The translations under genes were made by a program, and so were the position numbers. 64,000 nucleotides of DNA from an uncultured delta proteobacterium (GTDB taxonomy: Bacteria; Myxococcota_A; Polyangia; Polyangiales; Houyiibacteriaceae): contig CAVOVB010000002.1 in assembly GCA_963699755.1 (NCBI GenBank), positions 800,001 to 864,000 on the forward strand. The letters are read 5' to 3'. Below the pieces are notes generated by a model. The model saw only the letters and a program-made list of their open reading frames with translations. It did not search any database and was not told the DNA's origin. Positions 37,913-58,746 of the stretch are shown here, one piece after another; position 1 is the stretch's first letter, and each line of letters begins with the position of its first letter.

Positions 37913-38320
37913 TGGGAATTTCTTAGCACGTGGTTCCCGGGCGTGCCTCGGATTCCAAGCCTTCCGTCGAGCGAACTCTGCGTCTGGTTGCCGGTTCGGC
38001 AATGAGAACAATTACGTATGTCAGAAACGGACATGCGACCGTAGATTGAATTGGTGGACGCTGCGGGCGCTTCTTTCCTCGAGGAGGCCGCCTGCGTGGG
38101 TGTGTGTTCACGCAATTGGGATTGCGGCTGACGTGCGGTGCGTCGTGCATCCTCACCTCGACTGGGACCCGAGGCGCGGAGGCGGCGGGAGCTGGACACC
38201 TAGGGCCCCCCGAACGTGGCACCCATCGCACGTTGTGAGTTGCGTCATCGCTCTAGGGTCCTCCTTTGCCTACCGGCGCGGATTCGGGGTCGGGTTGCGA
38301 GCTCAGGCGCCCTCGGGGGT

Positions 38321-38369
38321 CCGCGAAGCACAGGTCTCTTAGACGGGGCGAGAGACCTCTACTTCACGG
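38321..38369 (+). promoter_or_regulatory. Two-stem leader hairpin, copy 1
   Basis: CCGCGAAG/CTTCACGG outer stem (one mismatch), AGGTCTCT/AGAGACCT inner stem, before the DUF3768 gene. Confidence 0.55.
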
Positions 38370-38395
38370 CCCCCAACAAACAAAGCGTGGAAACC

Positions 38396-38725
38396 ATGAG
38401 CCCCAAGGAGAAGATCGCGTTGCTGAACGACAAGGCTCGGACGGGGCTGCTGCCCGGATCGACGAGCGTGTTTCTGACGCGGAGGGTGGCCGCCCTGCCC
38501 GAAGAGATTTCAACTCTGCGCCGCACCGCAGCCGAGTTCGACGCTTTCACCGAAGACAACGATCCTTACCGGGAGCGTGATTTCGGGGCCGTGGAGCTGG
38601 CCGGAGAACGTTACTTCTGGAAGATCGACTACTACGATCGAACGCTTCGGTTCGGAGCCGAAGACCCATCCGACACCACCGAGACCGTGCGTGTCCTGAC
38701 CCTCATGCACGCAAGTGAGTACTGA
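38396..38725 (+). CDS. DUF3768-family protein
   Basis: IALLND..R, FDAFTEDNDPYRERDFG, FWKIDYYD, RVLTLMHASEY. Confidence 0.9.
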   Translation: MSPKEKIALLNDKARTGLLPGSTSVFLTRRVAALPEEISTLRRTAAEFDAFTEDNDPYRERDFGAVELAGERYFWKIDYYDRTLRFGAEDPSDTTETVRVLTLMHASEY

Positions 38726-38726
38726 G

Positions 38727-38972
38727 ATGACCTGCGCAACCGAGAACCGTGAGTTCGATTGGGTCTGCCCCGAATGCGGCAGCGATGACTGCGAAGTGAC
38801 CGCTTGGGTGCATGTGAACTCGAACGAAGTGTGCGAGGGCGAAGGGCCAGGCGAGCAGCATTGGTGCCCTCAATGCGAGGACCATCCTCGCCGGCTGGTG
38901 CAGCGAAGGGAGTTCGATTCGCGTCGACAGGGACAGAAGAAAACCGCTTCATTCGAGGAGCTTGGCGATTGA
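38727..38972 (+). CDS. Zinc-ribbon hypothetical protein
   Basis: CPECGSDD...WCPQCE; coupled to the DUF3768 stop. Confidence 0.7.
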   Translation: MTCATENREFDWVCPECGSDDCEVTAWVHVNSNEVCEGEGPGEQHWCPQCEDHPRRLVQRREFDSRRQGQKKTASFEELGD

Positions 38973-38974
38973 AT

Positions 38975-39003
38975 TTGACAAAATAGACGGAATAGACCAA
39001 GAT
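38975..39003 (+). promoter_or_regulatory. sigma70 promoter of TA operon 1
   Basis: TTGACA-17 bp-CAAGAT; spacer holds tandem AATAGAC; ATG 39011 lies 7 nt downstream. Confidence 0.7.
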
Positions 39004-39010
39004 GAAATCC

Positions 39011-39616
39011 ATGGGTGCCACGAAAAAGAGCAAGGTCGAGTCGCTGGCCGCGGTGGTTCGCGAAGAAGCCAGGCGATTGAAGCCGAAGGAGATCGAACGG
39101 CTGGTGCGGCACCCGAAAGTGGTCCGTCGTGCGTTGGCGTTTGCGGCCGAAACGCTCGCCGAGGATGTGGACGCGGACGTGGCGCCGGTTCAAGTCCTTG
39201 GGCGTGGAGGCCGCGCCAAGACGGTGCCCGCGGCGGAGGCACGTCGCCGGTTGGCAGCTCGTACCCGATCTGTCGAGGAGGATGCACTTCTGAGCTCCGA
39301 GGAGTTCGCGAAGAAGGCAGGACTCAAGAACCGGCAATCGGTGCACAACTGGCTCAAGAAAGGGCGCGTGGTCGGCTGGACGGGTGCGAAACGCGGGGTC
39401 GTGTTTCCCGCGGCGCAGCTCGACGACCGAGGACGGCTCCCCGAGGGACTCGAAGAGGTCCTCGCGCTCTTTGACGACGGGTATGCGGCGTGGGTCTGGT
39501 TGAGGACGCCCTTGCCGGCCCTCGACGGTCAAACGCCACTCGCGAGACTACGTGCCGGCGAGCGCGAGACGGTGCTCGAAGCCGCACGAGGGGATGCTCA
39601 AGGTGACTTTGCGTGA
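39011..39616 (+). CDS. Xre/MbcA/ParS-type antitoxin with HTH
   Basis: HTH (NRQSVHNWLKKG), FPAAQ, WVWLRTPLPALDGQTPLARL; GTGA overlap with the RES gene; alternative start 39002. Confidence 0.8.
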   Translation: MGATKKSKVESLAAVVREEARRLKPKEIERLVRHPKVVRRALAFAAETLAEDVDADVAPVQVLGRGGRAKTVPAAEARRRLAARTRSVEEDALLSSEEFAKKAGLKNRQSVHNWLKKGRVVGWTGAKRGVVFPAAQLDDRGRLPEGLEEVLALFDDGYAAWVWLRTPLPALDGQTPLARLRAGERETVLEAARGDAQGDFA

Positions 39617-40203
39617 GCCGGGGGTATAGCGTCCAACGGATTTCGACGCGGCTTGTCGAGATTGAGCTCGATTCCGTCTACCGACTGATTCGAAAGAAGC
39701 ACCGCCGGCGCCCGCTTCGGGTCGTGCCCACGCCGAGCCGGTTCAGCGACCCGAACGGGCAATACGCGGTGCTCTACGCGGCCGAATCGGTGCGGTGTAG
39801 TTCCTGGGAGGCGCTTGGGCGAAATCGCTTCACCCGCAAGAAGCAGCGCGAGCTGCCTCGTTTCGAGGTGGAGGACCGCGTGATTGCGACGCTTCGTTCG
39901 ACGGAGCCCCTGGCCCTGGTGGACCTTCGGGCCGATGGACCGGTGCGAATCGCGGCTCCGACCGGTGTTGCCCACGATGCGAATCATGCTGCGGCGCGCG
40001 CGCTTTCCGCCGCGACGCATGCGGGGGTGCCCGCCGCCGACGGGTTCGTTTATCACTCGAGGTTTACGGGGGACGCGTGCGTTGCCGTGTTCTCTCGGGC
40101 TCTTGGCAAGCTTGATGCCGTGGCCGTGGAGCCGCTCATACGAAGCGCGGACTTCCTCGATGCGCTCGATGACTACGACATCACACTGACGACGCCCTCG
40201 TGA
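39613..40203 (+). CDS. RES-domain toxin
   Basis: SRFSDP..YAVLYAAES...WEAL...DGFVYHSRF. Confidence 0.85.
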   Translation: MSRGYSVQRISTRLVEIELDSVYRLIRKKHRRRPLRVVPTPSRFSDPNGQYAVLYAAESVRCSSWEALGRNRFTRKKQRELPRFEVEDRVIATLRSTEPLALVDLRADGPVRIAAPTGVAHDANHAAARALSAATHAGVPAADGFVYHSRFTGDACVAVFSRALGKLDAVAVEPLIRSADFLDALDDYDITLTTPS

Positions 40204-40401
40204 ACCCCTCGGACCTTGACGGCGAGCAAACGAAAGCCCCGTTTCAACGGGATTCATGTTTTCTTCGCAGGTGAGCGCGGAAGCATTGATCGTCGGGTGC
40301 GCTCGGCACCGAACCCCGGTTTCCCTCCTTTTTTCTCCTGGTCCTGTGCCTCGGAAGTTCGTGTGAACGAGGCACTCGCCCATTTCAAACGGAGGAACCC
40401 G

Positions 40402-40635
40402 ATGATTCAGAAGATCACTCAACAAGACGCCCGCCTTCTCGCGACTCGGGACGCCGTGCGCGCCATGGAACAAAGCGACTACGACGGCGTGAGCTGCGCG
40501 TGCTCCGAGGGCTTTGACGACCACCGCTTCGAGGGGCTCGGCGACGTGATTCTGTTGAACCCCGGGCTCGAGATCTCGGAGAACATCGTCCAGGCCTACG
40601 ACGCGGTGTACCGGGAGACCTGGCAGCGCGGTTAG
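40402..40635 (+). CDS. Hypothetical protein (77 aa)
   Basis: GGAGG RBS preceded by a GTGCCTCG/CGAGGCAC hairpin (40346-40375). Confidence 0.65.
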   Translation: MIQKITQQDARLLATRDAVRAMEQSDYDGVSCACSEGFDDHRFEGLGDVILLNPGLEISENIVQAYDAVYRETWQRG

Positions 40636-40681
40636 TGCCCTCGCTCCGCGGGCTGAAGCCCGCGCGGCCTCGCCGTTCGCG

Positions 40682-40725
40682 CCGTGAGCCAGCTCTCCGA
40701 ATCGGGCGAAAGAGCTGCCTCACGG
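40682..40725 (+). promoter_or_regulatory. Two-stem leader hairpin, copy 2
   Basis: CCGTGA/TCACGG and CAGCTCT/AGAGCTG stems followed by AAAGGAGA RBS of radC. Confidence 0.65.
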
Positions 40726-40743
40726 CGCGAAAGGAGAGTCTCG

Positions 40744-41199
40744 ATGTCCGAGCCAAACGCCCAAACCGACGACCTGCACATCATCCGCGAGGTTCATTTG
40801 AACTACAGCCAAGACCGGCCCGTCCAGGCGCCGCTCACCGACAGCGATGCTGCGGCGGCGTTTCTTCGCGGGGTCGTGAAAGACACCACCCCAGAGCACG
40901 CGGTGGCCATCTACCTCGACCCGAAGAACCGCCCGCTTGGTTGGCGCATCGTTTCGATCGGCACCGACGTTTCGGCGCCTGTGAAGCCGCTCCTGGTCTT
41001 GCAGCCCGCGGTGTTGCTCGGGGCCAGTGCGATGATCTTTGCGCACAACCACCCTTCGGGAGACCTCGAACCGAGCCCGGAAGACAAGAAGCTGGCGGAG
41101 ATGCTGTGCCAGGCCTGCACGCTGCTTGGCCTTCGGCTATTGGACAACCTCATCTGGACCGAGCTCGGAAGCACGAGCTACGGGCCGTACGCGAGGTAG
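40744..41199 (+). CDS. radC: RadC-like JAB domain protein (short, mobile-element type)
   Basis: EHAVAIYLD..N, AHNHPSGDLEPSPED. Confidence 0.9.
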   Translation: MSEPNAQTDDLHIIREVHLNYSQDRPVQAPLTDSDAAAAFLRGVVKDTTPEHAVAIYLDPKNRPLGWRIVSIGTDVSAPVKPLLVLQPAVLLGASAMIFAHNHPSGDLEPSPEDKKLAEMLCQACTLLGLRLLDNLIWTELGSTSYGPYAR

Positions 41200-41292
41200 C
41201 AGAGGGCTGCACGATGAAGAACGTGAGACAAGCCGGGGGAACCGAAACGCCGTAATCGCGTGTACAGTGCAACACTTTGCGCATGCTCCGGC

Positions 41293-42288
41293 CTACATTA
41301 CTAGCTCGTTTCGCTGAATCAGCGCGGCAATCTGTTGCGCTTCACCTTCCGTCAACTGCGGTTGCGGGCTACGAACGCGGTTACCGATCGGATGACCGAG
41401 CTGTCGCAGGGTTTCCTTGATCACTGCGACCCGGGATTGGGGCTTGCTCTTGAGGGCGATCGGCGAGTGGAACAACAGCTTAAACGCGGCTCGCTGAAGC
41501 GATACGGGCGGGCCTAGGTCATTCATGAGCGGAATAAGATTCAAAATCTTGTCCTGCAAGCCCTGGGCGCGACCGACATCCTGACTGAGACAGGCGTCGT
41601 AGGTTTCGACGATCAGTCTCGGAGCCACAGACGGAAGAATCGCCATGGCACCTGCGCCACCACGTTTCAGAGTATCCGAGATGGCGAAGCTATGACCCGC
41701 AAAAATCGACTTCCGGTGGCCAGTGCGGAGCGTGCCCGTGCAGTCGATGTGAGCGCCCATCGCCCTCATATTGACGATGCTGTCTTTCATGCCGACCATT
41801 CCCTCGATCGACAGCAGCTTTGCAATCTGCTGCGGAGAGAAGAAGAGACCCGTCGCCTGTGGAAAGTGATAGTAGAAAATCGGCTTGCATGACGCGTCAC
41901 AAAGCAGCGAGAAACAATCATATACCGCGTCGAATCCGACGGTAAAGTAGGTGGGCACGATCACAAGAAAGCCGTCGACGTCCCAACGGCCGACCTCCTC
42001 TATGAACTTCAGGGTTTCGAGCCTGCTACCAAACCCGGCCCCAACCACCAATGGAACGCGACCAGCCACTGCTTCGATGGCGTCCTTCGTAACCTTGGTC
42101 CTTTCTTCGTAGCTCAGGTACGCAAACTCGCTGCCGCTGCCTAGGATGACCACGCCGTGGCAACCGCTCTCGACGTAGTAGTTGAGGAGGTGCTTTAACC
42201 CGGCGCTATCGAGTTCCTCGTTGTCCTTGAGCGGCGTCGGGACAATCACGTAAATGCCACGGGGGGAGTCGCCGATTTCCGTTGCCAT
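41293..42288 (-). CDS. Dihydrodipicolinate synthase/N-acetylneuraminate lyase family
   Basis: PTPL, LGSGSEF, FYYHFPQATG, GMKDS (Schiff-base Lys). Confidence 0.88.
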   Translation of the reverse strand: MATEIGDSPRGIYVIVPTPLKDNEELDSAGLKHLLNYYVESGCHGVVILGSGSEFAYLSYEERTKVTKDAIEAVAGRVPLVVGAGFGSRLETLKFIEEVGRWDVDGFLVIVPTYFTVGFDAVYDCFSLLCDASCKPIFYYHFPQATGLFFSPQQIAKLLSIEGMVGMKDSIVNMRAMGAHIDCTGTLRTGHRKSIFAGHSFAISDTLKRGGAGAMAILPSVAPRLIVETYDACLSQDVGRAQGLQDKILNLIPLMNDLGPPVSLQRAAFKLLFHSPIALKSKPQSRVAVIKETLRQLGHPIGNRVRSPQPQLTEGEAQQIAALIQRNELVM

Positions 42289-42494
42289 GGAGCTCACAGG
42301 CGAATGGTAACCCCAAATGCGCTTCTTTGGATCTGAGAAGGTCGGACTGTGCTCGGTGGAGTTCTCGGGATAGAGCGGCGGGAATACCTCTTGCCCCTGC
42401 TCCTTTGTGTCGCGCGACTGTTCTCCGAAGCTCTGCTCGGCGCGGCCAGGGTTCTCCAAGGCGGGCGCTCCATTCCCCGCTTTGCGGTGAACGC

Positions 42495-42690
42495 GCCCGC
42501 GGTCTTGCTCGGCGCGAACGCCATGATCTTCGCCCACAATCATCCTTCTGGAGATCTTCAGCCGAGCCCCGAAGACAAGAAGCTGGCCGAGACGCTCTGC
42601 CAGGCCTGTACTCTGCTGGGCCTCCGACTTCTCGACAACCTCATCTGGACCGAGCTCGGAAGCACGAGCTACGGGCCGTACGCGCGATGA
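42495..42690 (+). pseudogene. 3' fragment of a second radC copy
   Basis: Nearly identical peptide to 41004-41199 (PAVLLGA...YGPYAR); no 5' half. Confidence 0.85.
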
Positions 42691-42825
42691 GGTGGATCCA
42701 GGGATGGGCCAACAGAAGCACCGTCAAGCCAAGCGAACAATTACGTATAGATTGGTTTGCCCTCGCGTGTTCTGGTGAGCGCAGACATCAGCGAAAACGA
42801 TCCCGCAATGAAGGAGGATGAAAGC

Positions 42826-43254
42826 ATGCCCAGAATAACCAAGAGCATCGATATTGGCGCACCTGTCGAGAAGGCATTCGCATACCTGGCGGACTCCCGA
42901 AACCTCCCCGAGTGGTTCGTAGGCGTCTCCGAAGTGACCGACGTAAGCGGCTCGGGCGTTGGCCAGCATAACCGCTGGACGTACACCATGATCGGGATTC
43001 CGTTCCGCGGAGAGAGCACGCTTACCGAGCACGTCCCAAACCAGCGTTTGGTCTTCGAGCAAAAGGGGGGAATGACCAGCACCATCACGTTCACCTTCGC
43101 ACCGCTCGAGAGCGGCACGAAGCTGGGCTTCGACGTCGACTACACCATCCCAGTTCCCGTCTTGGGGAAGCTGGCCGAGAAAGCCGTGTTCAAGCGAAAC
43201 CAAAGAGAGGCCGCTATGTCGATGGAGAACATCAAGGAACGATTGGAGGTCTAG
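42826..43254 (+). CDS. SRPBCC family protein, copy 2
   Basis: IDIGAPVEKAFAYL; shares YTIPVPVLGKLAE with copy 1; AAGGAGG RBS. Confidence 0.88.
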   Translation: MPRITKSIDIGAPVEKAFAYLADSRNLPEWFVGVSEVTDVSGSGVGQHNRWTYTMIGIPFRGESTLTEHVPNQRLVFEQKGGMTSTITFTFAPLESGTKLGFDVDYTIPVPVLGKLAEKAVFKRNQREAAMSMENIKERLEV

Positions 43255-43338
43255 GGCGCCGTCCAATTCCACGAGCGTTCCGGCCCCGATCCATCTGCAG
43301 CCTTGACCCGCGCCGTGCGGTGAAGGCACACCCCATGA

Positions 43339-43656
43339 ATGGCCGAGGCGACCCCTGCCGATTGGCGCGACACCTGCGAGCATTGCGGACGCGCATTTGA
43401 CGCGGGCGAGCCGCGGTGGCTCGAGCAGCGGCGCTACTTCGTTCACACCGAATGCGCGCGGTGGGAGCGATGGGAGACGCCGCCCTACCTCTGGAAGCTC
43501 AAGGAGCTGAGGAAGAGGTATCGCGTCGCGAGCTCCGAGGAGCGCGGGTCCATCGCACATGCAGGACGCGCGATTCGGGAGATGGAGCGGGCTTGGCCCG
43601 CGGATGCCCCCGCGTACGTGAGCCGGGTCCTGGCCGCGGTGCGTCGCGTGGGTTGA
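43339..43656 (+). CDS. Hypothetical protein with CxxC...HxxC
   Basis: CEHC...VHTEC. Confidence 0.6.
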   Translation: MAEATPADWRDTCEHCGRAFDAGEPRWLEQRRYFVHTECARWERWETPPYLWKLKELRKRYRVASSEERGSIAHAGRAIREMERAWPADAPAYVSRVLAAVRRVG

Positions 43657-43782
43657 CCCAGCCAGGTGCTGAAGCCGACCTCGTCGCGCCCTTCTCAATG
43701 CTCCCCCCGGTCCCTGGTCAACCGCGTTGCCCCTGCTGCTTCGGCATGTCCGCGAGGGTGTGCTCGGCGCGCCCTGGGTTCT

Positions 43783-43836
43783 CCGTGGGCCGAGGAGACA
43801 GCTCTCCTGCTTCGGTGAGAGAGCTGCCATCCACGG
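43783..43836 (+). promoter_or_regulatory. Two-stem leader hairpin, copy 3
   Basis: CCGTGG/CCACGG and CAGCTCTC/GAGAGCTG stems, TTCG in the loop. Confidence 0.7.
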
Positions 43837-43858
43837 CACACCAACAAAGGAGAACACC

Positions 43859-44050
43859 ATGAGCACCAAGAAGCACAGCATCTACGTCATCCAGGAAGGC
43901 ACCCAGGGCAAGAGCTACTGGAACCGAGCCGGAGTTGCGTTTTTGAACAAGGACGGGAGCTTCACGTTGAAGCTCGACATCCTCCCTCAGACGAAGTTCC
44001 AGCTCCGCGAGGAACAGCCCGTCACCGAGGAGCATGTAACGGCCGAGTAG
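43859..44050 (+). CDS. Small DUF736-like (putative nucleic-acid-binding) protein, copy 1
   Basis: MSTKKH.IYVI...KSYWNRAGVAF.NKDGSFT.KLDI.P; AAAGGAGA RBS; four copies in the window; family assignment tentative. Confidence 0.8.
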   Translation: MSTKKHSIYVIQEGTQGKSYWNRAGVAFLNKDGSFTLKLDILPQTKFQLREEQPVTEEHVTAE

Positions 44051-44064
44051 CGGCCGGCCCACGG

Positions 44065-44089
44065 CAACCAGGGCGCCCTGCCCCGGTTG
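44065..44089 (+). repeat. CAACCAGGGC hairpin, copy 1 of 6
   Basis: CAACCAGGGC-GCCCT-GCCC(C/T)GGTTG; also at 48090, 51319, 54301, 55774, 58697. Confidence 0.85.
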
Positions 44090-44223
44090 TCGCTCGCACG
44101 CACAGAAAACGCAGAAGCTGCGCCCAGAATCGCCCTGCAGGAAAGAATTACGTATAGCGCGGCGCAATCCGGCGACCCCATGTTGCCTATGACCCCTCTG
44201 TGCGGGTCGGCCGGGGGTTTCTC

Positions 44224-44700
44224 ATGCGGTACTTGATTGGCTTTGTGTTGGCGCTGGCGTCGGTGGCTTCGCCTCTGAGCGTCGGCGCACAAGCCGGTGA
44301 GGAAGCGGTACCGAAGGTTGCCTTGGCTATCCATACGCAGCATCGTCTGCCGCCGCAACTGATGTTGCGGGCGAGCTATTACCTATACCTCGATGCCGAT
44401 GAGAAAGGCCGTTCACGGGTTGAGCAGTGGCACCCTGAAGCTTTCGTTGACCCTTCCGAGCCCGAGCCGACGAGCACGCCAGAGGAACAAGACGGGTTCA
44501 GTCATCCTGTCTACGTTGACCCCGTTTCGGGCGCGCCCTTGGCCGTCCCCGAAGACCCGCAAGTGCCGACCGCGCCACTGAAGGAAGAACAAGAGCGTAA
44601 GAGGAGGCGGCGAATTGGCATCGGGGTTGGCGTCTCCGTTGCTGTCGTTGTTATTCTGGCTGTGGTCGGGGGCGTGGCGGCGGGGCTTCGTGACTTGTGA
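44224..44700 (+). CDS. MRYL-leader exported protein with C-terminal TM anchor
   Basis: MRYLIGFVLALASVASPLSVGAQ; WHPEAFVDP; RRRRIGIGVGVS. Confidence 0.8.
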   Translation: MRYLIGFVLALASVASPLSVGAQAGEEAVPKVALAIHTQHRLPPQLMLRASYYLYLDADEKGRSRVEQWHPEAFVDPSEPEPTSTPEEQDGFSHPVYVDPVSGAPLAVPEDPQVPTAPLKEEQERKRRRRIGIGVGVSVAVVVILAVVGGVAAGLRDL

Positions 44701-44758
44701 GCCACGCCGCGAGGCGGGCGGCACCATGTGCAACGTCGGCGCGTTTGGGACGTAGCAG

Positions 44759-44907
44759 CGCACCCGCTGCGCCCCCACGCCCCAAACGCAAAAGGTGCAC
44801 GCCGTAACCTGAGATTCCCGAACGAAACGGGGCTTCCACCTGGCACGCCTGATGCACCTACGTAGCCGCACTTAGGGGCGCATAACGCCGCAACCGGGGA
44901 GGTTGTT
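44759..44907 (+). repeat. Cassette upstream repeat (box B + sigma54 promoter + RBS), copy 1
   Basis: CGCACCCGCTGCGCCCCCACGCCCAAACGCAAA...TGGCACGCCTGATGCA (44841-44856)...ACTTAG...GGGAGGT. Confidence 0.85.
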
Positions 44908-45342
44908 ATGAAGCTGAAAAGGCTACTTTGGATCGGAGCTGCGCTTGTGACGGTTCCGTTCGCGAGTGGCTGCGGGTACGGGTGTACTGATAGGGGCTGC
45001 TTTGCCGGAATAGAGGTTGCCCTCGTGCCGAGTGTCAGCTCCACATACGACGTCGAGCTTGTTCTGGATGGCGTCGTTGATGCGTTCACATGCATCAAGA
45101 CCGAAGACGGTTGGTCGGTCGGCGACTCGACTGAGGGTGTGCTGTGGTTTGGGTGCGACGGCTCCGGGTTTCACGTACACGCAACTCCCGAAACGTTGGG
45201 GATTTCGGTCGCTGCCCAAGATGGAAGCTGGACGGGGTCCATAAGCGAGAGCCCGGACTACCGGTTTTATCAACCCAACGGAGCTAAGTGCGACGGAGCG
45301 TACGGCTGCGACCAAGCAGAGCTGACCGTACCGAAGGGATGA
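44908..45342 (+). CDS. Hypothetical lipoprotein
   Basis: Lipobox ASGC; YQPNGAKC motif; GGAGG RBS. Confidence 0.8.
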   Translation: MKLKRLLWIGAALVTVPFASGCGYGCTDRGCFAGIEVALVPSVSSTYDVELVLDGVVDAFTCIKTEDGWSVGDSTEGVLWFGCDGSGFHVHATPETLGISVAAQDGSWTGSISESPDYRFYQPNGAKCDGAYGCDQAELTVPKG

Positions 45343-45353
45343 AACTTCAACGA

Positions 45354-45502
45354 CGCACCCGCTGCGCCCCCACGCCCCAAACGCAAACGCTGCGTGTCAC
45401 GCCAAAGGAATCACCAGCAAAAACCGACCCCTCACCGTGGCACGCCTGATGCAGCCTCATCGACCGACTTAGTTGCGCTCTGCGCCTGAACGGGAGGTCG
45501 TC
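45354..45502 (+). repeat. Cassette upstream repeat, copy 2
   Basis: Same box B and TGGCACGCCTGATGCA (45438-45453). Confidence 0.85.
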
Positions 45503-45985
45503 ATGCGGTATTTAGCTGGCTTTGTGTTGGTGGCGGCGTTGGTGGCTTCGCCGCTGAGCGTGGGCGCGCAAGGCGGTCAGGAAGCGCCCGCAGTGGAGCT
45601 TCAAGTGGACGAGGCTGGGGTAGAAGTTGTGCCGAGCCGGCCAGGGACAATTGACGGATACACGCTTGAGGAGATGCAGCTTCGTGTGAAGCGAGCGAAA
45701 ATCGGGCTCTGGAGCACGGCGGGCGCGACCGTCGTAGGGGGCGTGATCATTGGCGCCTGGTGGAATTGCGAGCATCGCGATGAACCGGCGGACGATGCCT
45801 TCTTTGCTTGCCCGGGAGCACTCTTTTCGGGCGTTGCCGTAGGTTTCTCAGGAGCCGTGGGGATGATCGTCACGGGTGCTTTGTTGGGCGCTCGCAAGCG
45901 AAAGCTGCGCGAACTGCAGGAAGCGCACTACGGAACACCGCGCAGAGTCCAATGGGACCTGGCACGGTCGCGGCTCGTGTTCTGA
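45503..45985 (+). CDS. MRYL-leader membrane protein
   Basis: MRYLAGFVLVAALVASPLSVGAQ; two TM segments; ends VQWDLARSRLVF. Confidence 0.8.
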   Translation: MRYLAGFVLVAALVASPLSVGAQGGQEAPAVELQVDEAGVEVVPSRPGTIDGYTLEEMQLRVKRAKIGLWSTAGATVVGGVIIGAWWNCEHRDEPADDAFFACPGALFSGVAVGFSGAVGMIVTGALLGARKRKLRELQEAHYGTPRRVQWDLARSRLVF

Positions 45986-45998
45986 GGGGAGGTTCACC

Positions 45999-46562
45999 AT
46001 GCGGTATTTAGTTGGCTTTGGAGCCCTTCTAGTTGCGTTGGGGACATGGGGAGTAGCGGGGTGCGGGGAGTCGCTTATTCCGTGTGATGATTTGGGAGCC
46101 GGCTGCGCCCTGAGCGATGGCAGCGTGGGCGTGTGCACGCATGAAGGCTGCAGAAAGGAGTCGGGGCCAATCTCGTGCAAACACGGTTACGCCAATCTAT
46201 ACGACTGGGAAGACGGAACTCTCTGCCGGTCATCGGATCTGCGAGAGGGCACGTGTCTCGACGGCGTGTGCGGAGGCGAACACTTCTGCGAAGGCGTCGT
46301 GTGCGACGAACCAGACAACCTCTGCGAAAGCGATCAATTCTGCAACTGGGAGGGGGTCTGCGAGTTCCGGCAAGTTACGAAATGCAACGATCGGAGCGAT
46401 TGCACGTCCGACAAGTGCGATTCTGACGTAGGGTGCGTCTACATCAATCGCCCTAACGGCGCTGAGTGCGTCTTGCCGGGTGCAGACTGGTTCTGCTGCG
46501 GGCTCGGATTAGCTTGTTGCGACTATGGAACTTGCAGGGACGGCGTCTGCATTGATGAGTGA
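45999..46562 (+). CDS. MRYL-leader Cys-rich lipoprotein
   Basis: MRYLVGF...VAGC; CNDRSDCTSDKC-type repeats; GGAGG RBS. Confidence 0.8.
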   Translation: MRYLVGFGALLVALGTWGVAGCGESLIPCDDLGAGCALSDGSVGVCTHEGCRKESGPISCKHGYANLYDWEDGTLCRSSDLREGTCLDGVCGGEHFCEGVVCDEPDNLCESDQFCNWEGVCEFRQVTKCNDRSDCTSDKCDSDVGCVYINRPNGAECVLPGADWFCCGLGLACCDYGTCRDGVCIDE

Positions 46563-46593
46563 CGCCGGTGCGTTTGAGGTGCAGCCGTAGCCA

Positions 46594-46737
46594 CGCACCC
46601 GCTGCGCCCCCGCGCCCCAAACGCAAAGCCTGCGCGCATCGGTAGCGGATTCCACTGCAAAAGCTGGGCTCCCACCTGGCACGCCTGATGCAGTTACATA
46701 GCCGCACTTAGGGTCACGCTGCACCGGGGAGGTCGTC
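46594..46737 (+). repeat. Cassette upstream repeat, copy 3
   Basis: Same box B and TGGCACGCCTGATGCA (46677-46692). Confidence 0.85.
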
Positions 46738-47424
46738 GTGCGGTACCTATTCGGATTCCTGTGCATTTGGGCGTTGGGAGCGGTTGCGCTGGTCGGGTGC
46801 AGCGAGGAAACGCCCCTGCCATTGGAATGCGTGCAGGACGAGGATTGCGATGACGCCAACGAATGCACGGATGATAGCTGCGTAGAGAAGCGGAGATGGT
46901 TCGAAGGGAAGTACTACGGTAGGTGCGAAAACTCTGCGGTTGAATACGGAGAATGTGACTTCGACGGTCTCGACGATGCCCTCGGTGGTCTAGACGGCAT
47001 TTGTGTCGCAGGGGTCTGCGAGAAGAACCCGTGCGATGATGGCAACGAGTGCACCCACGACCTATACGATTTCGAAGGTTCGTGCGACCATATCGGATGT
47101 GGCGGGTGCCAACCCTGCGACCGTAATGGGGAGCCTGGCATCTGCGATGGTGACGTTTGCGCAGAGTATCCCTGCAATGACGGCGTCATTTGCGAAGATG
47201 GTGACCTATGCACCTACGATTTTTGCGATTACACAGACGGAATGTGCGACTTCAATCCGGTGTGTCTCAGCGGTCAATGCAGAGTTGCCTCGTGCGATCC
47301 AACCGATGGGTCATGTACCTTCACTCCGGCGCCAGACGGAACGCCGTGCTCCTGCGGGGGCGTGATCTGCATTTGCCCCGGCACTTACGTCTGCAGCAGC
47401 GGCGCTTGCGTATGCCAGCTCTAA
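46738..47424 (+). CDS. MRYL-leader Cys-rich lipoprotein with CDDGNECT repeats
   Basis: (V)RYLFGFLCIWALGAVALVGC; CDDANECTDD, CDDGNECTHD, CEDGDLCTYD. Confidence 0.82.
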   Translation: MRYLFGFLCIWALGAVALVGCSEETPLPLECVQDEDCDDANECTDDSCVEKRRWFEGKYYGRCENSAVEYGECDFDGLDDALGGLDGICVAGVCEKNPCDDGNECTHDLYDFEGSCDHIGCGGCQPCDRNGEPGICDGDVCAEYPCNDGVICEDGDLCTYDFCDYTDGMCDFNPVCLSGQCRVASCDPTDGSCTFTPAPDGTPCSCGGVICICPGTYVCSSGACVCQL

Positions 47425-47807
47425 AGGGAGGCACGCGACGTGGGTGCGTTTGAGGCGCAGCCGTAGCTCTCGAATAGCGGCGCTTGCTCGGGGTTGAGCG
47501 GCCTCATCTCCGCCTCGCATGTACATCAATCGCGGTTGCGGCGCCGCCGCCGGCAGAGTCCGATCGGCCGAGCGCGTGACATCGCTGTGAAGCGACCGTC
47601 CGTGTCGGCGACCCCTCTCTGGTCCAGCCTGCCGATGTGTCCCTCGGGCTCTGCCATGCCTCCAAAGGTCTACTCCGTGCGCCCTGCGTTCTCCCAAGCC
47701 GTGCGCTCCCTTCCCCGCTCTCACGCCCTACACTCTCGCAACCGAGTGCCAGCGGAGCTGTCACAGCGTTTGCCAAGGTTCCAGTTGCTTCGCGGTGAGC
47801 GCGCCGG

Positions 47808-47862
47808 CCGTGGGCCGAGGAGACAGCTCTCCTGCTTCGAGTGAGAGAGCTGCCATCCACGG
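47808..47862 (+). promoter_or_regulatory. Two-stem leader hairpin, copy 4
   Basis: Near-identical to 43783-43836. Confidence 0.7.
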
Positions 47863-47884
47863 CACACAAGAAAAGGAGAACACC

Positions 47885-48076
47885 ATGAGCACCAAGAAGC
47901 ACACCATCTACGTCATCCAGGAAGGCAACCAGGGCAAGAGCTACTGGAACCGCGCGGGGGTTGCGTTCTTGAACAAGGACGGGAGCTTCACGTTCAAGCT
48001 CGACATCCTTCCTCAGACGAAGTTCCAGCTTCGCGAGGAACAGCCGCTCGCCAAGGAGAAAGCCGCCGCCGAGTAG
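47885..48076 (+). CDS. Small DUF736-like protein, copy 2
   Basis: MSTKKHTIYVIQEGNQGKSYWNRAGVAFLNKDGSF. Confidence 0.8.
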   Translation: MSTKKHTIYVIQEGNQGKSYWNRAGVAFLNKDGSFTFKLDILPQTKFQLREEQPLAKEKAAAE

Positions 48077-48176
48077 CGGCAGCCCGCGGCAACCAGGGCG
48101 CCCTGCCCTGGTTGCCGCGGGGCCTCCATGAACTTAGGCCTTCACCTGCGATCCTCCGTTTGATACGATCGTTCCG

Positions 48177-48392
48177 ATGCATTTCCTGGAGTGGGTCGAA
48201 GAAGCGGAGTCGCTGCTCAGGCGCGATGGCGTCTGGCCCGATCAAGACGACGTCCGCGCTCGCGGTGTGCTTGAGGAAGCTGCCCTCCGAGGCCCCGAGC
48301 CCCTCGTCCACGCCGTCCGCGCGCTACGGCGGGACCAAGAGCTTTGCGAGACGGAGCTCCGCACCCGCCAGCGATCCTCGGCTCCTTCTTGA
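48177..48392 (+). CDS. Leaderless 'WVEEAES' small protein, copy 1
   Basis: Paralog of 54391 and 55868; TGATACGAT 7 nt before ATG. Confidence 0.7.
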   Translation: MHFLEWVEEAESLLRRDGVWPDQDDVRARGVLEEAALRGPEPLVHAVRALRRDQELCETELRTRQRSSAPS

Positions 48393-48412
48393 AAGGCCCT
48401 GAGCACTAGGAC

Positions 48413-48440
48413 TTGACATCACGCATTTTCACCCTATTCT
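48413..48440 (+). promoter_or_regulatory. sigma70 promoter of TA operon 2
   Basis: TTGACA-16 bp-TATTCT in an AT-rich patch. Confidence 0.6.
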
Positions 48441-48463
48441 GAGTGATAGATAATGTGATTTTG

Positions 48464-48814
48464 ATGCAATTCCGCGCCTTCATCGACGACAACCACTTCT
48501 CTCCTTCGAAGATTGCCGAGGCCCTGAGAACGACGAAAGGCGAGATCTCGGAAACCCTCGGACTCGCCTCGGATGCGTTGACGCGGCGGCAGCGGATGGA
48601 GGCTGTGAAGACGCAGACCCGGCTTCGAGAGATGCTCGAGATCCTGAACCGCGTCGAGTCCGTGACCGGATCGCTCCTCGGAGCTTACGCGTGGTTTCGC
48701 TCGGAGCCGCTCCCTGGGTTCGGGGGGCAGACGCCCGATCAACTGGTTCGTGCGGGCAAGGCCAGCCAAGTGCACGCCTATCTCGATCGGGTGATGGCGG
48801 GTGGCTACGCATAG
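48464..48814 (+). CDS. Xre/MbcA/ParS-type antitoxin
   Basis: QTRLREMLEILNRV...AYAWFRSEPLPGFGGQTPDQLV. Confidence 0.88.
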   Translation: MQFRAFIDDNHFSPSKIAEALRTTKGEISETLGLASDALTRRQRMEAVKTQTRLREMLEILNRVESVTGSLLGAYAWFRSEPLPGFGGQTPDQLVRAGKASQVHAYLDRVMAGGYA

Positions 48815-49343
48815 CTGGGGAATCCGGTTTCAGGGATCGGTCTACCGCGCACACAATCCCGAATGGGCGTGGGATCCACTGTCAGGTGCGGGCGCCAAGC
48901 TCCACGGGGGTCGCTTCAACCGTCGAGGGCGTGCTGCGCTCTACACATCACTCGACGTGCTGGTCGCCGTGCGGGAGGTGAGCCCCCTCGGTGCGCCCTT
49001 TCATCCTCTGACCTTGTGCCAGTATCGGGTCGAGTGCGAAAACGTCTTCGATACCCGAGACCCCAAAGCAATGAAACGCGAGAAGGTTTCCGAGGATCAG
49101 CTCGAGTGTCCGTTCTGGAATCAGGAGATGCTCGAAGGGCAGGTCCCGGCATCGCATCGACTCGCCGAACGCCTCATCGAAAGAGGCTATGCCGCCATGA
49201 TCGTCCGTAGCTTTGCGGACGGCGTCGGTCCTGAGGATATGAATCTGGTTCTCTGGAAGTGGACGAAGCGGCGGCCCCACAGGATCATCCTCTTCGATCC
49301 CGATCGTAGGCTTCCGAAGGATGGCTCCTCGTGGAGGAAGTAG
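48801..49343 (+). CDS. RES-domain toxin
   Basis: YRAHNP.W...SGAGA..HGGRFN....ALYTS...REV...VRSFA...NLVLW. Confidence 0.88.
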   Translation: MATHSWGIRFQGSVYRAHNPEWAWDPLSGAGAKLHGGRFNRRGRAALYTSLDVLVAVREVSPLGAPFHPLTLCQYRVECENVFDTRDPKAMKREKVSEDQLECPFWNQEMLEGQVPASHRLAERLIERGYAAMIVRSFADGVGPEDMNLVLWKWTKRRPHRIILFDPDRRLPKDGSSWRK

Positions 49344-49522
49344 GGGTTATTGGCGGGCTTGTCTGGCACTTGGAAGACGACTGCGGCCGCGGTCGTGGCG
49401 GAGAAGCGTCGGGGCCCGCGGGAATGCCCCTCTTGCAGAGCTCGATTTGGATAGGGCTAGGCATCGCCTCCAGTTCGGGGGGGACGAAGCCGATCTTTCG
49501 TTCTACTCTCCGCGGGGAGCTC

Positions 49523-50335
49523 ATGATGTTTCCCGCCCCAAGACCCTTGGCCGAGGACTTCGGTCGTACGGAAGTGACCATCGATGGCGCCACCAAACCC
49601 GTTTGGCGAAGTGGCAACGGTCCCGGCGTGGTCATCATGCACGAGGTGCCAGGCATTACGCCTGAGGTGGCGCGGTTCGCCCGGATCGTGCGCGACCGCG
49701 GGTTCACCGTGTTCTTGCCGGAGATGTTTGGGACGGTCGATAAGCCGGTGAGCGGTGGGTACGCGATCGCTTCGATGCTTCACTGCTGCATCTCGCATGA
49801 GTTCCACGTTCTCGCGGCAGGCGGGTCTAGTCCCATTACCGACTGGCTCCGCAAGCTCTGTCATCAAGTGCATGAGGAGCTCGGTGGACCTGGGGTCGGT
49901 GCCCTCGGCATGTGCATGACCGGCAATTTCGCTCTTGCGCTGATGGTTGACCCTTCCGTTATGGCTCCCGTGTTGTCTCAGCCCTCGCTGCCTTTTCCGT
50001 TTGGAAAGAAGCGCAGCCGTGCGATTCACGTTTCACCCGAGCAGCTTGAGGCGATCAAGCGACGCGTGCGCGAAGAGAATGTCAAGGTGCTGGGTCTTCG
50101 GTTCACGGCCGATCGAGTCTGCACCCGCGCTCGTTTCGAGACGCTTCGCCGGGAGCTCGGCGAGGGATTCGAGGCAATCGAGATCGATTCCGGACCAGGC
50201 AATCCCTGGGGAATCAAGCAAATCGCGCACAGCGTCCTCACCGAAGAGCTCGTCGATGACGATGGGCATCCAACGAAGCAGGCGCTCGATCGCGTGCTCG
50301 GATTCTTCGAAGAGCGGCTCAGAGCGTCTGGCTAG
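49523..50335 (+). CDS. Dienelactone hydrolase family protein
   Basis: MHEVPGITP, GMCMTG (Cys nucleophile), LSQPS, AHSVLT. Confidence 0.85.
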   Translation: MMFPAPRPLAEDFGRTEVTIDGATKPVWRSGNGPGVVIMHEVPGITPEVARFARIVRDRGFTVFLPEMFGTVDKPVSGGYAIASMLHCCISHEFHVLAAGGSSPITDWLRKLCHQVHEELGGPGVGALGMCMTGNFALALMVDPSVMAPVLSQPSLPFPFGKKRSRAIHVSPEQLEAIKRRVREENVKVLGLRFTADRVCTRARFETLRRELGEGFEAIEIDSGPGNPWGIKQIAHSVLTEELVDDDGHPTKQALDRVLGFFEERLRASG

Positions 50336-50744
50336 CCAATATCGTCGCGTTGCGATGTGAGAAGATTCGGGACTAGCCCGCATCGTCGTGTCGGGATTGT
50401 GCCCACTGTAAGCCAGGCGTACGGCACGATTCTCGGGGTCTTCGCCTCGGACCGCCTCGACTGCATCGGCCACTTCCCTCACAAGCAAGGGAACGACGAA
50501 GTCCCCGGCTGGGTCCGCTCCGGCGCGAACTTCGATCTGAAACGCTTCGAGCTTCTTTGGGAGCGCGTCGCCAATTTCGTCGCGGCGCAGAGGCAGGCAA
50601 CGGTCACCGAGGAGGCATCGCCTCGTCCCGAGTCTCCCGCGGCTTGAGAGCTAGCTGCTCCACAGCTTGTCCGAAGGCGGTGCCGATCTTTTGATTGGTC
50701 CAATGCGCTTCGCGTGTAGCACGACAATGCCGTTCGCGACGTCG

Positions 50745-51012
50745 GACCGGCGCCCGCTCGCGGGTACGAGCACGCTCTTCTCCGGCCTCAGAGGCACCGG
50801 CAAGACCATGGCCGCCAAGGTGATCGGACGGACGCTCGAATTGGACGTCTATCGAACGAATCTCCCGGAGGTGGTCTCGAAGTGGGTTGGGGAGACCGAG
50901 AAGAACCTCTCGCGAATGTTCGCCCACGCGCAGCATAGCAAGGCGCTCTTGCTCTTTGACGAGGCTGACGCGCTCCTCGGGAAGTGCACATGAGTCTCTG
51001 ACGCGTACGACC
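50745..51012 (+). pseudogene. AAA+ ATPase internal fragment
   Basis: LFSGLRGTGKTMAA...VVSKWVGETEKNL...LLFDEADALLGK, then a stop, then VSDAYD. Confidence 0.8.
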
Positions 51013-51118
51013 CCCTCGAAACGCGCAGACTCACGAAAGAGGCTGAGCATGAATGGCCACGCGGCCCTCCGTACCTGTGCCCATATCGGATCGTCGTTGG
51101 GCTCGAACACCGCCCCCG

Positions 51119-51304
51119 CGCACCAAGAAGCACACCATCTACGTCATCAACACCACCGATAACGGCAAGAGCTACTGGAACCGCGCGGGGGTCGCCTTCG
51201 GGAACAGGGACGGGAGCTTCACGTTCAAGCTCGACATCTTTCCTCAGACGAAGTTCCAGCTTCGCGAAGAACAGCCCGCTACGAAAGCGGAGGCCGCCGA
51301 GTAG
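51119..51304 (+). pseudogene. DUF736-like copy 3 with the original start and leader lost
   Basis: GAACACCATGAGC replaced by GAACACCGCCCCCGCGC; rest of ORF intact; in frame with ATG 51053. Confidence 0.7.
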
Positions 51305-51561
51305 CGCCCTGCCCGCGGCAACCAGGGCGCCCTGCCCTGGTTGCTTGCTCACACGCATAGAAACCGAGGCGCACGTCCTGCGCGGTTTTCGGCCGACCGG
51401 TGAAAAGTCCAATCGTTCTCAGGAGCCGTCTCGTCGATGGAGGCGCAACCTTTGCGTACGCGAAATAGCTAAAGAATTACGTATAGCCACAGGTCCTACG
51501 GCGACCCAAGTCGCATTGTGTGACCGGCCCGAGCCGGCCGGGTGCAAGCGGGGAGGTTGTG

Positions 51562-54198: not shown

Positions 54199-54211
54199 AA
54201 GGAGGACTGCG

Positions 54212-54280
54212 ATGGAGTCGCATCCAGAGGGCACGATGTGCGACCTCGGATCGTTTGAGCGCCAAACCGACGAGCCCTAG
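54212..54280 (+). other. Choice-of-anchor-Q-like tail remnant, possible 22-aa mini-ORF
   Basis: AGGAGG RBS then MESHPEGTMCDLGSFERQTDEP*. Confidence 0.55.
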
Positions 54281-54390
54281 CGCTGGAGCGTAGCCCACGG
54301 CAACCACGGCACCCTGCCCTGGTTGTCTGCCAGGGCCGAAGAGCCCCTTGACCCTTCTCCCAAGATCTTCGCTCTGGTACGATCGAGCCC

Positions 54391-54600
54391 ATGGATCTGT
54401 CGGACTGGGTCGAAGAAGCGGAATCGATCCTGCGATTGGACGGCTTATGGCCGGAACAGGATGAAGAGCGAGCTCGAGGCGTTCTCGAGGAAGCGGCATT
54501 GCAGGGTCCCGCGGCCGTTACTCAGGCGATCTACGTGCTTCGGCGAGAGCTGAGGGAACGAGGCCGAGGCGTTCGCGATCAAAGCGTCCCCTGCAGATAG
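54391..54600 (+). CDS. Leaderless 'WVEEAES' small protein, copy 2
   Basis: TGGTACGAT 7 nt before ATG. Confidence 0.7.
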   Translation: MDLSDWVEEAESILRLDGLWPEQDEERARGVLEEAALQGPAAVTQAIYVLRRELRERGRGVRDQSVPCR

Positions 54601-54758
54601 TAAATTCAAACGCCCTTTCGGCTTCGTGCGCCAGGCGACATAACGTCTAGTACCGCATCCCGACAGGCTAAGAGAGTTGGTGAAGGGCAAAACGGCAGCT
54701 CTCCGGGGACTTGCGCACCAGCAGGCTAGATTTGCCCAAGTGAAAGTAAATCTCTACA

Positions 54759-55589
54759 TCAGTCACCGGCGAAAGGCGGGTCACCGGGCGCGCGGTACTT
54801 GTCCAAGGGACTGCGCACGGCGTCACTGCCATAGTACCAACCGTTTCCATCGAGCTCTTCGAAGAGAAGGTGCATGGCGGAGCGCGTGCCCTCTTCTGGT
54901 GACTTCATCCCGAGGTCGGCGGGCGACTTGCCAGAGGACTCGGCGTAGGGCCGGGTCAGGTCTGTCTCAATAAACCCGGGCGTACATGCGTTGATGCGCA
55001 GCGAAGGGTGATTCTGCGCAAGGCACATGGTGAGGCTATTGGCGCAAGCCTTGGAGAGTCCATAGGCGTCTGCCTCGTCGCCGGCTTTGACTGCGGCGCT
55101 CATGAGCGCGTCGATGGCGCCCCACTCCACCTTCGGGTCCACAAAGAACCTTTGTTTGTCCTGATCACATTTGGCCACGTACATGGGCCCGGAAGCGGAT
55201 GTGATGTTCACCATGCGCCCCGAGCTTTTGTCGAGCAAAGACAGGAAGGAGTCGCTCACGCGTTTGATGCCGCGCACATTCACATTGAGTACGGTCTCAA
55301 GCGCGTCCGAACCGAGCCCAATGCCCGCGTTGTTGACGATGCCGTAGAGCGACTCCCCATTCACCGCTGCCTTTACTTGCTCCGCCGCTGCCGCCACGGA
55401 GTCGTCGCTTGCCACATCGAGCGCCACCACCTGCACTCGGTCGGAAGCGATGGTCTCACAAGCCTTCTTGCCGCGTTCCGCATCGCGAGACCCCAGAAAA
55501 ACGAAGGTATCATCGTGATTTCTTAAAATGGCCTGCACAATGGCGAGGCCGATTCCTTTGTTTGCTCCGGTTACCAAAATCCTTCGCAT
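54759..55589 (-). CDS. SDR oxidoreductase (carbonyl reductase-like)
   Basis: TGANKGIG, NNAG, YGLSK, PGFIETD; AGGAGG RBS. Confidence 0.92.
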   Translation of the reverse strand: MRRILVTGANKGIGLAIVQAILRNHDDTFVFLGSRDAERGKKACETIASDRVQVVALDVASDDSVAAAAEQVKAAVNGESLYGIVNNAGIGLGSDALETVLNVNVRGIKRVSDSFLSLLDKSSGRMVNITSASGPMYVAKCDQDKQRFFVDPKVEWGAIDALMSAAVKAGDEADAYGLSKACANSLTMCLAQNHPSLRINACTPGFIETDLTRPYAESSGKSPADLGMKSPEEGTRSAMHLLFEELDGNGWYYGSDAVRSPLDKYRAPGDPPFAGD

Positions 55590-55867
55590 ATCATCCTCCT
55601 GGAGTCAGAGGGGTACGAACTCCTCGAGCGAACCGCAAGGCCATGCACAAGATCCGGATCTTATTTCGCAACGGTCTTGCGAGCCGCGTCCAGATACGGG
55701 CGGCACCACGTGCGATGTCGGCGCGTTCGAGCGGCAGTCGGACGACCCCTAGCGCTAGCGCGCAGCGCACGGTCAACCAGGGCGCCCTGCCCTGGTTGTC
55801 TGCCAGGCCCCGTCGAAGAGCTTCTTGGCTCGTCTCCCAAGATCTTCGCTCTGATATGATCGTACTC

Positions 55868-56098
55868 ATGGATCTGGCGGACTGGGTCGAAGAAGCGGAG
55901 TCGCTCCTACGAAGGGACGGCCTACGGCCCGAAGAGGATGAAGAGCGAGCTCGAGGCGTTCTCGAGGAAGCGGCATTGCAGGGCCCCGCGGCCGTCACCC
56001 AGGCGATCTACGCGCTGCGAAGGGAGCTTCGCGACGCAGATCGACGCGTCCGCGGCCAAAGTGCGGCTGCAGGGTGGAAAACATTTCGCTGGCCATAG
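55868..56098 (+). CDS. Leaderless 'WVEEAES' small protein, copy 3
   Basis: TGATATGAT 7 nt before ATG. Confidence 0.7.
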   Translation: MDLADWVEEAESLLRRDGLRPEEDEERARGVLEEAALQGPAAVTQAIYALRRELRDADRRVRGQSAAAGWKTFRWP

Positions 56099-56163
56099 AC
56101 AAGGGGGCATTGCGCGGAGAGGATCTCGAAGATCTTCTCGCCGACGGGATACCGCCTCCACTC

Positions 56164-57312: not shown

Positions 57313-57398
57313 GCGGATAGGGTTCGGAGGAGGCTGGCGCCTGATTGTCGGCCCTCACGTACAAGGCGCATTGAACCCGGCGCGGGACATGCCCCCCT

Positions 57399-57839: not shown

Positions 57840-57956
57840 CACAATCCCTCCGATTGCGCCCGCCCGTATCGAGTCGGTCACATGAGGCAAGTTGGGTCGC
57901 CGGGCGGCGCCGAGCCATACGTAATTCTTTACTTGCCAAGCGATGGCCCGCGCAGC

Positions 57957-57991
57957 TTTTGCGTTTGGGGCGTGGGCGCGCAACGGGTGCG
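57957..57991 (-). repeat. Box B, inverted copy 4
   Basis: Minus strand CGCACCCGTTGCGCGCCCACGCCCCAAACGCAAAA, followed by AATTACGTAT (57926-57917). Confidence 0.8.
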
Positions 57992-58680: not shown

Positions 58681-58746
58681 ACTGCCGGCCTCCAGGCAAC
58701 CAGGGCGCCCTGCCCTGGTCGTCTGCCAAGTTTCGGGCCGCGGGTC

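Follow-up and report, generated by a model that had tools for sequence, protein, structure and literature searches.

How the establishment genes of conjugative elements are switched on where the boxes of an Frpo promoter are missing is an open question, Frpo candidates being defined by -35/-10 boxes in the available part of the work on them (PMC11541004). A hairpin that bears on this question recurs in the stretch of DNA analysed here, 64,000 nucleotides in length and hereafter called the window (positions 800,001 to 864,000 of contig CAVOVB010000002.1, assembly GCA_963699755.1, from an uncultured delta proteobacterium of the Myxococcota). A first-pass annotation of the window had claimed hairpins before a DUF3768 gene, a radC gene and two small genes, and all four were found where it had placed them, each just before a ribosome-binding site (RBS) and an ATG (Table 1). 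The hairpin is a shared, covarying cis element that precedes five gene families on conjugative elements of Myxococcota. Our best reading, to which we would give a probability of roughly 40%, is that the template strand forms a single-stranded DNA (ssDNA) structure that may switch on the establishment genes, as judged from sequence comparison. Throughout, "sense" denotes the strand of the downstream gene, "template" or "antisense" its complement, and hairpin coordinates are window positions.

A covarying hairpin ahead of five gene families

The element is one long interrupted stem-loop of about 45-100 nt, positioned directly before the RBS, and not the two-stem structure that had been proposed. 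Across the two classes of the phylum in which copies were found, its near-invariant part consists of TCTC-C, then 11-14 nt of loop with GYGA at its end, then GAGA, with the ATG following 30-43 nt beyond the end of this core. The loops had been described as freely varying, yet in nearly all copies they open with C and close with GYGA. Aligned leaders from the window's genus read CAG(C/G)TCTC-C-loop-GA-GAGA(G/C)CTG. The initially suggested pattern CCGTG(A/G)..CTCT..AGAG..(T/C)CACGG holds for three of the four window copies, whereas the DUF3768 copy reads CCGCGAAG..CTTCACGG. Likewise, the reported exchange of CCGTGA/TCACGG for CCGTGG/CCACGG is present, but the conserved part lies elsewhere than in the outer stem; better supported is a swap of C-G for G-C beside the TCTC core, which divides the sequences 18 to 5 and separates the DUF3768 type from the others.

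On the antisense strand, the DUF3768 and radC leaders share a common helix of 23 pairs in which 93.5% of the alignment cells are paired. Ten of these 23 pairs were changed on both sides, and the covariation score of the helix was 0.347, compared with 0.163 for shuffled and at most 0.096 for slid alignments; in the alignment spanning both classes, 6 of 12 pairs were changed on both sides. A covariance model built from the DUF3768 and radC leaders alone recovered the small-gene leaders at 35-55 bits, and the three leader types therefore constitute one family. The best 95 rows of this two-family search represented 76 distinct sites (DUF3768, 32; small gene, 27; radC, 17), while the remaining rows comprised two sites before apparent broken small-gene remnants, duplicates and opposite-strand echoes. 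The DUF3768 leader of the window scored 73.4 bits, this copy being in the training set of the model. Since the leaders of small genes 1 and 2 are 95% identical and represent paralogous duplicates, the window provides three independent contexts. Folded as DNA, all four window hairpins were more stable than dinucleotide shuffles, their z scores ranging from -2.2 to -4.5 for the sense strand and from -2.2 to -6.3 for the antisense strand. For the radC hairpin these were -4.51 (plus) and -6.28 (minus), and for the DUF3768 hairpin -2.16 (plus) and -3.67 (minus), the minus (template) strand giving the best fold of the latter.

Conceivably, the likeness of the leaders could reflect mere shared ancestry of a sequence moved by recombination without present function, especially as the island is packed with duplications and broken copies. 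The compensatory changes and the invariant core were, however, kept in two classes and in five gene families, which makes this explanation highly improbable. Covariation largely refutes it for the family, although the window's own copies may still fit it.

A search of Rfam 15 at gathering scores returned nothing in the window and nothing in seven loci of related elements. The radC motif RF01754 had no match in the window or in these loci, nor was it among the six window matches at E values up to 10; the best of these, itself weak, was mir-3158 (33.6 bits; threshold, 97). No description of the motif was found in the published literature searched, which did not extend to the supplement of a paper on 224 motifs (PMC5737381) that may bear on novelty. 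The hairpin is a repeated structured leader of establishment genes that is absent from Rfam, and the proposal of a shared cis element was upheld by its covariation and by the lack of an Rfam match, the radC motif included.

With the first covariance model, strong matches were obtained in 9 of the 55 genomes of the window's genus, and a stricter sequence pattern matched 13 of the 55, partly by chance; a loose pattern matched all 55, the same as the control level, and was discarded as uninformative. Outside the genus, nothing among 150 genomes of the order reached an E value of 0.005 in a search with this first model only, the matches of which rest mainly on sequence. A corrected model led to a match in genome G457, from a second class of the phylum, and then to matches in 10 of 101 of its relatives; the 12 matches among these relatives included 9 true copies and 3 unrelated sequences. 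A third model detected 35 sites in 12 of 150 second-class genomes, 15 of these sites being training sequences. Eighteen of the 35 precede radC, 10 small-gene homologues, 3 ardC and 3 open reading frames (ORFs) of the DUF6908 type (one of the three checked by Pfam), and one has no intact ORF behind it. The suspected link to mobilome genes thus held for 34 of 35 second-class matches. Overall, the families behind the hairpin are radC, DUF3768, ardC, DUF6908 and a small gene of 63-75 aa. The core is not bound to one gene family, because the DUF3768-type core occurs ahead of small genes in the second class.

In the window's genome the motif is confined to the island described here. It was not found before distant DUF3768 genes, and no such hairpin was seen in 27 folded loci of chromosomal small-gene homologues. 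Such chromosomal homologues were matched in 100 of 151 genomes, a tally that includes the unpublished genome G123, from which no other result derives. A pattern scan of GTDB genomes gave at least 119 matches, and none of the 80 examined was judged a true copy, a result that does not establish absence. Viral contigs gave five pattern matches, none judged a true copy, and none with two strict patterns or a traG query. BLAST of an ardC leader against plasmids yielded 11 weak matches, none covering the core, and other traG elements of the same order yielded nothing above 13 bits. The searches over 40 genomes applied strict filters, with 29-84 candidates scored per genome, and weak copies may have escaped them.

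Several contexts place the hairpin on conjugative elements. In five metagenome contigs the DUF3768-radC block adjoins kfrB-traG, with traF on three of them; in genome G154, trbG and trbI share a contig with the DUF3768 block; and the element of genome G557 carries a trb operon, DUF2274, a hairpin-small gene unit, two hairpin-radC units and a hairpin-ardC unit, with traG, relaxase and traF on the opposite strand. From these contexts we infer that the hairpin belongs to Trb-type conjugative elements, of which the window would be a chromosomal remnant devoid of transfer genes. No tyrosine recombinase (PF00589, C2:800001-864000), tRNA, trbG, trbI or traG match was detected in the window island, and the window copies, located in a chromosomal island without transfer genes, may be silent. 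The hairpin offers a means of recognising conjugative elements, intact or decayed, in uncultured Myxococcota.

Strand, molecule and mode of action

The strand that folds was approached through the mismatches within the helix. Among 38 leaders, A·C on the sense strand occupied 91 cells versus 7 for G·T; among 75 leaders the ratio was 146 to 5 cells, or 22 to 3 distinct family-column events, and 15 to 3 upon removal of the near-invariant loop-closing column. Fourfold sites of the same genes displayed no such bias (G>A, 37/90; C>T, 42/128). Because the mismatches are G·T on the template strand and A·C on the sense strand while neutral sites are unbiased, the template strand is likely the folding one. 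Replication skew was ruled out as the source of the bias, the local skew being G-rich on the sense strand and the neutral sites balanced. The consensus energies were -30.3 antisense versus -16.3 sense for the DUF3768 leaders and -37.2 versus -22.7 for the radC leaders. With RNA parameters, 126 ordinary leaders of the window's genome favoured the sense strand by +2.6 kcal/mol, whereas the three hairpin families favoured the antisense strand (-13.2, -4.0 and -7.3 kcal/mol). The metagenome DUF3768 leaders of the close clade, which were found later, repeated the bias, 21 of 21 folding better antisense, some of these loci duplicating the genomes, compared with 17 of 48 distant, motif-less DUF3768 leaders.

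An antisense bias of this kind would also agree with a short cis-antisense RNA for each gene that, like RNA-OUT of IS10, would fold as the hairpin and mask the RBS. The bias is indeed stronger under RNA than under DNA parameters, and an anti-RBS tail is part of the antisense strand. Nevertheless, five unrelated coding regions would each require an antisense promoter, none of which was found at the four window sites, and cis-antisense pairing does not require a shared invariant core. We therefore regard this explanation as quite unlikely.

The short invariant inverted core common to unrelated genes, together with the ribbon-helix-helix (RHH)-like genes on the elements (a weak Pfam hit), could alternatively indicate that an element-encoded repressor binds a double-stranded operator or a cruciform, leading to zygotic induction as in the CUP or EGeRS2 regulons. 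Such an operator appears very unlikely, given that the length of the spacer is variable (11-14 nt), that covarying pairing is present at 20 or more positions beyond the core, that the mismatches are strand-biased and that no overlapping promoter was found.

Less remote, although still rather unlikely in our view, is a role of the hairpin in the mRNA, where it would be an attenuator or a switch of translation, like EGeRS1 of pLS20. The hairpin would then block read-through, or toggle between pairing of its 5′ and 3′ arms, leaving the RBS free, and pairing of UCUCC with GGAGA, blocking the RBS, with an element protein binding the apical core. A structured sense RNA is expected to gain G·U rather than A·C, and the opposite was seen. 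Furthermore, the alternative pairing has no GGAGA partner in the DUF3768 leaders, and no terminator-like site was found 3′ of the four window hairpins on the sense strand. What recommends the switch is the fixed position of the hairpin at the RBS, with 30-43 nt from the end of the core to the ATG, the good folding of the sense strand as well, and the ability of the conserved TCTCC to pair with the RBS, through 7 pairs in the majority of radC and ardC leaders. To this may be added a cUUCGg in the small-gene loop. The orientation matches that of EGeRS1, for which, in the available part of the report, the transferred strand is the non-template one and read-through is blocked (PMC8708921). Of the two modes offered by the first-pass annotation, a cis-regulatory RNA or an ssDNA promoter, RNA of the mRNA strand is thus disfavoured by the wobble bias, whereas ssDNA fits the strand and lacks the Frpo features, namely boxes and orientation.

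A number of observations weigh against an ssDNA switch on the template strand. The antisense preference in the second class, with RNA parameters, was seen for 7/7 small-gene, 3/8 radC, 1/3 ardC and 0/1 DUF6908-type leaders, and with DNA parameters the strand difference in that class was about zero; the small-gene leaders of the genus were near neutral as well with DNA parameters (-0.6). The cUUCGg of the small-gene loop lies on the sense strand, and such loops have a stabilising role in RNA. The sense-strand A·C mismatches could instead be the product of selection against strong folding of that strand, and the mismatch counts overstate significance because the copies are related and some metagenome loci duplicate genomes. 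Sigma-70 -35/-10 boxes were not found in the four window leaders, the best agreement being 6-7 of 12 positions with the sigma-70 consensus, the only one applied. Finally, the hairpin genes oppose the relaxase operon in four of five elements (G557, G584, G543:C1 and G573) and run in the same direction in G543:C18. By analogy with RP4, as described in the available part of PMC7314908, the transferred strand would equal the coding strand in the opposed elements. No nic site was identified in the elements searched. The mobC-relaxase of the G179 island was rejected as an indicator of polarity, being a multi-copy element present elsewhere.

If the template-strand reading is nonetheless followed, the template DNA strand would fold into the hairpin while the element is single-stranded, and the folded strand would act as a common on-switch for establishment genes around transfer. 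The folding molecule would be DNA rather than antisense RNA, its invariant apical core would presumably be read by a protein or polymerase, and the downstream genes would be induced together. Since the genes and the relaxase are opposed in most elements, the strand that folds would more probably be the donor's remaining single strand or a rolling-circle strand than the incoming strand, barring an opposite relaxase polarity. A further step, which we consider doubtful, would be to see in this compact, box-less template-strand hairpin a new class of single-strand expression signal, whose TCTC/GAGA apex might be read by an element-encoded factor and which might fire on the donor or rolling-circle single strand so that ArdC, RadC and their partners are made at transfer. 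The element is short and covarying, with an invariant core of roughly 12 nt, and both the strand and the molecule can thus be tested with few oligonucleotides. DUF3768, DUF6908, short RadC and the unnamed family of 63-75 aa likely form one regulon with ArdC, and they are therefore candidate anti-defence or establishment proteins.

The chromosomal island and its genes

The features of the window that relate to the hairpin are listed in Table 1. The island is strongly reshuffled between relatives and rich in duplications and broken copies. Relatives of the DUF3768 protein are present on 475 plasmid records. The small genes had been called DUF736-like, an identity that found no support in Pfam, where DUF736 (PF05284) gave no match at E values up to 1. 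The nearest Atlas cluster with 61% DUF736 scored 0.76, which is a lead only, and distant DUF736 kinship is possible. A fold search with the small protein (model with a predicted local distance difference test score, pLDDT, of 69) gave a best Z of 2.7, and its close homologues carry the NCBI labels Polyangiales or Myxococcales.

Table 1. Hairpins, genes and repeats of the island, in window positions.
Feature	Position	Strand	Remarks
DUF3768 leader hairpin	38315..38374	-	sense core TCTC 38335-38338, 13-nt loop, GAGA 38352-38355
DUF3768 gene, 109 aa	38396..38725	+	Pfam PF12599, E 1.6e-32
Small Cys-rich ORF	38727..38972	+	follows DUF3768 in relatives too; no Pfam hit
Hairpin GTGCCTCG/CGAGGCAC ahead of 77-aa ORF	40346..40375	.	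different from the motif; core absent
77-aa ORF	40402..40635	+	kept between DUF3768 and radC; no Pfam hit
radC leader hairpin	40669..40738	-	core TCTC 40694-40697; 28-nt arms extend into RBS
Short radC, JAB domain, 151 aa	40744..41199	+	Pfam PF04002, E 7.2e-28
Second radC, 3′ fragment with leader lost	42495..42690	+	
Small gene 1 hairpin	43783..43836	-	49.6 bits, model trained on DUF3768 and radC leaders only
Small gene 1, 63 aa	43859..44050	+	predicted three-strand beta sheet; no Pfam family
Inverted repeat CAACCAGGGC-N5-GCCCTGGTTG (CAGGGC-GCCCT-GCCCTG) after small gene	44065..44089	.	copies also at 48090, 51319, 54301, 55774, 58697
Small gene 2 hairpin	47808..47862	-	53.7 bits, same two-family model
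Small gene 2, 63 aa	47885..48076	+	86% identical to gene 1
Third small-gene copy, 5′ end and hairpin lost	51120..51304	+	
Fourth small-gene copy, broken	near 58493-58680		

Two further leaders of the island have hairpins of their own. The leader of the 77-aa ORF folded better on the template strand in 8 of 8 relatives, and that of a 105-aa ORF (about 43300-43338), with yet another hairpin, was better antisense in 6 of 6, both with RNA parameters. Insertions in the island include two Xre/RES toxin-antitoxin pairs (39002-40203 and 48464-49343). The motif (A/G)(A/C)AATTACGTAT occurs 17 times in the genome, including five times in the island (38009, 42738, 44145, 51474 and 57927).

The small genes form part of a repeated unit of leader, small gene and inverted repeat, present 2-6 times per island (window 43783-58721; G084:C8, G128:C1, G178:C3 and G179:C6). 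Each unit is followed by different cargo, often lipoprotein-like genes with an MRYLxGF start, and this cargo is shuffled between genomes. The units resemble a cassette-like array, for which no integrase was found. The inverted repeat CAGGGC-GCCCT-GCCCTG occurs six times in the genome, each time within the window; in the G543 element it separates traF from the gene that follows, close to the relaxase module (L458:9550). It could be a repeat of an origin of transfer (oriT) or an operator, and relaxase-driven recombination between its copies might be the origin of the array. In conserved cargo-gene leaders, TGGCACG-N4-ATGCA motifs were observed at 44841, 45438, 46677 and 31736, which we take to resemble sigma-54 promoters; a similar TGGCAC..TGCA is often located upstream of chromosomal small-gene homologues. 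One such homologue and the genes beside it exist in two diverged versions (G000:C7:351848-352063 and C1:1649510-1649725), and the assembly may contain two mixed strains, in agreement with a contamination figure of 9%.

On the elements themselves, the gap between kfrB and DUF3768 (L341:3520-3860; also L327, L333, L334 and L335) has the block CCGTCCTCACCCCTGTTATCGGTTTTGCCCC conserved and a hairpin ahead of kfrB, and is a candidate oriT or promoter region. Between small-gene copies and trbI, the G154 element carries a CBASS-like set of SAVED, SMODS, ThiF and JAB genes. A mobC-relaxase unit (L114:10195-10240; G000 C1, C7 and others), with an apparent 5′ tRNA-gene fragment upstream as read by eye, was matched in 44 of the 55 genus genomes, 13 times in G000; no traG match was found in these genomes.

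Relation to known systems

Integron attC sites are bottom-strand-biased hairpins with the ends RYYYAAC/GTTRRRY. The present hairpin resembles them in its bottom-strand bias, its position directly before an ORF and its occurrence in a shuffled array. In contrast to attC, the alignments contain no RYYYAAC/GTTRRRY ends, the island has no tyrosine recombinase, and only five gene families lie downstream. The CUP repeats of IncN/IncW plasmids are a repeated upstream sequence of a regulon that includes ardC, with a strong promoter and repressor operators. EGeRS2, too, is a single repeated upstream sequence that serves a regulon with ardC, and in this respect our element is alike; unlike CUP and EGeRS2, which bear a strong promoter with repressor operators, none were seen here (for EGeRS2, the available part of PMC8708921).

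Two structured motifs of Rfam are comparable, as far as the accessible part of PMC2864571 describes them. Similar to the hairpin, the radC motif RF01754 is structured and located ahead of radC on mobile DNA, but its rows measure about 145-165 nt, have a different sequence and derive from Proteobacteria. STAXI (RF01728) is likewise a repeated structure near anti-restriction and DNA-handling genes that raises the question of RNA versus ssDNA; it is a tandem pseudoknot of Enterobacteriales, whereas our element has no Rfam match.

The closest parallels are with leaders of establishment genes. Frpo/ssi of F and ColIb-P9, according to the available part of PMC11541004, share with the present element a hairpin upstream of establishment and anti-restriction genes on conjugative elements. 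In both, the template strand of the downstream gene folds, which here is suggested by sequence in the window's genus and weakly so in the second class. Set apart by description, our hairpin is compact and has no TTGACA/TATAAT-like boxes or AT-rich UP element, and its genes oppose the relaxase in 4/5 elements. We do not count it as an Frpo by sequence, given the absence of -35/-10 hexamers and this orientation. For the induced genes of RP4, no ssDNA promoters are known from the part of PMC7314908 available. EGeRS1 of the Bacillus pLS20-family plasmids, compared by description from the available part of PMC8708921, measures 420-750 bp, is multi-branched and occurs in bacilli, unlike the single 45-100-nt hairpin with a short invariant core found in Myxococcota; its mechanism is described there as open. 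The two nevertheless agree in being repeated, GC-rich structured leaders before ardC and other establishment genes, without a housekeeping promoter, and, as reported for the genes behind EGeRS1 in pLS20, the coding strand is probably the one transferred (PMC8708921).

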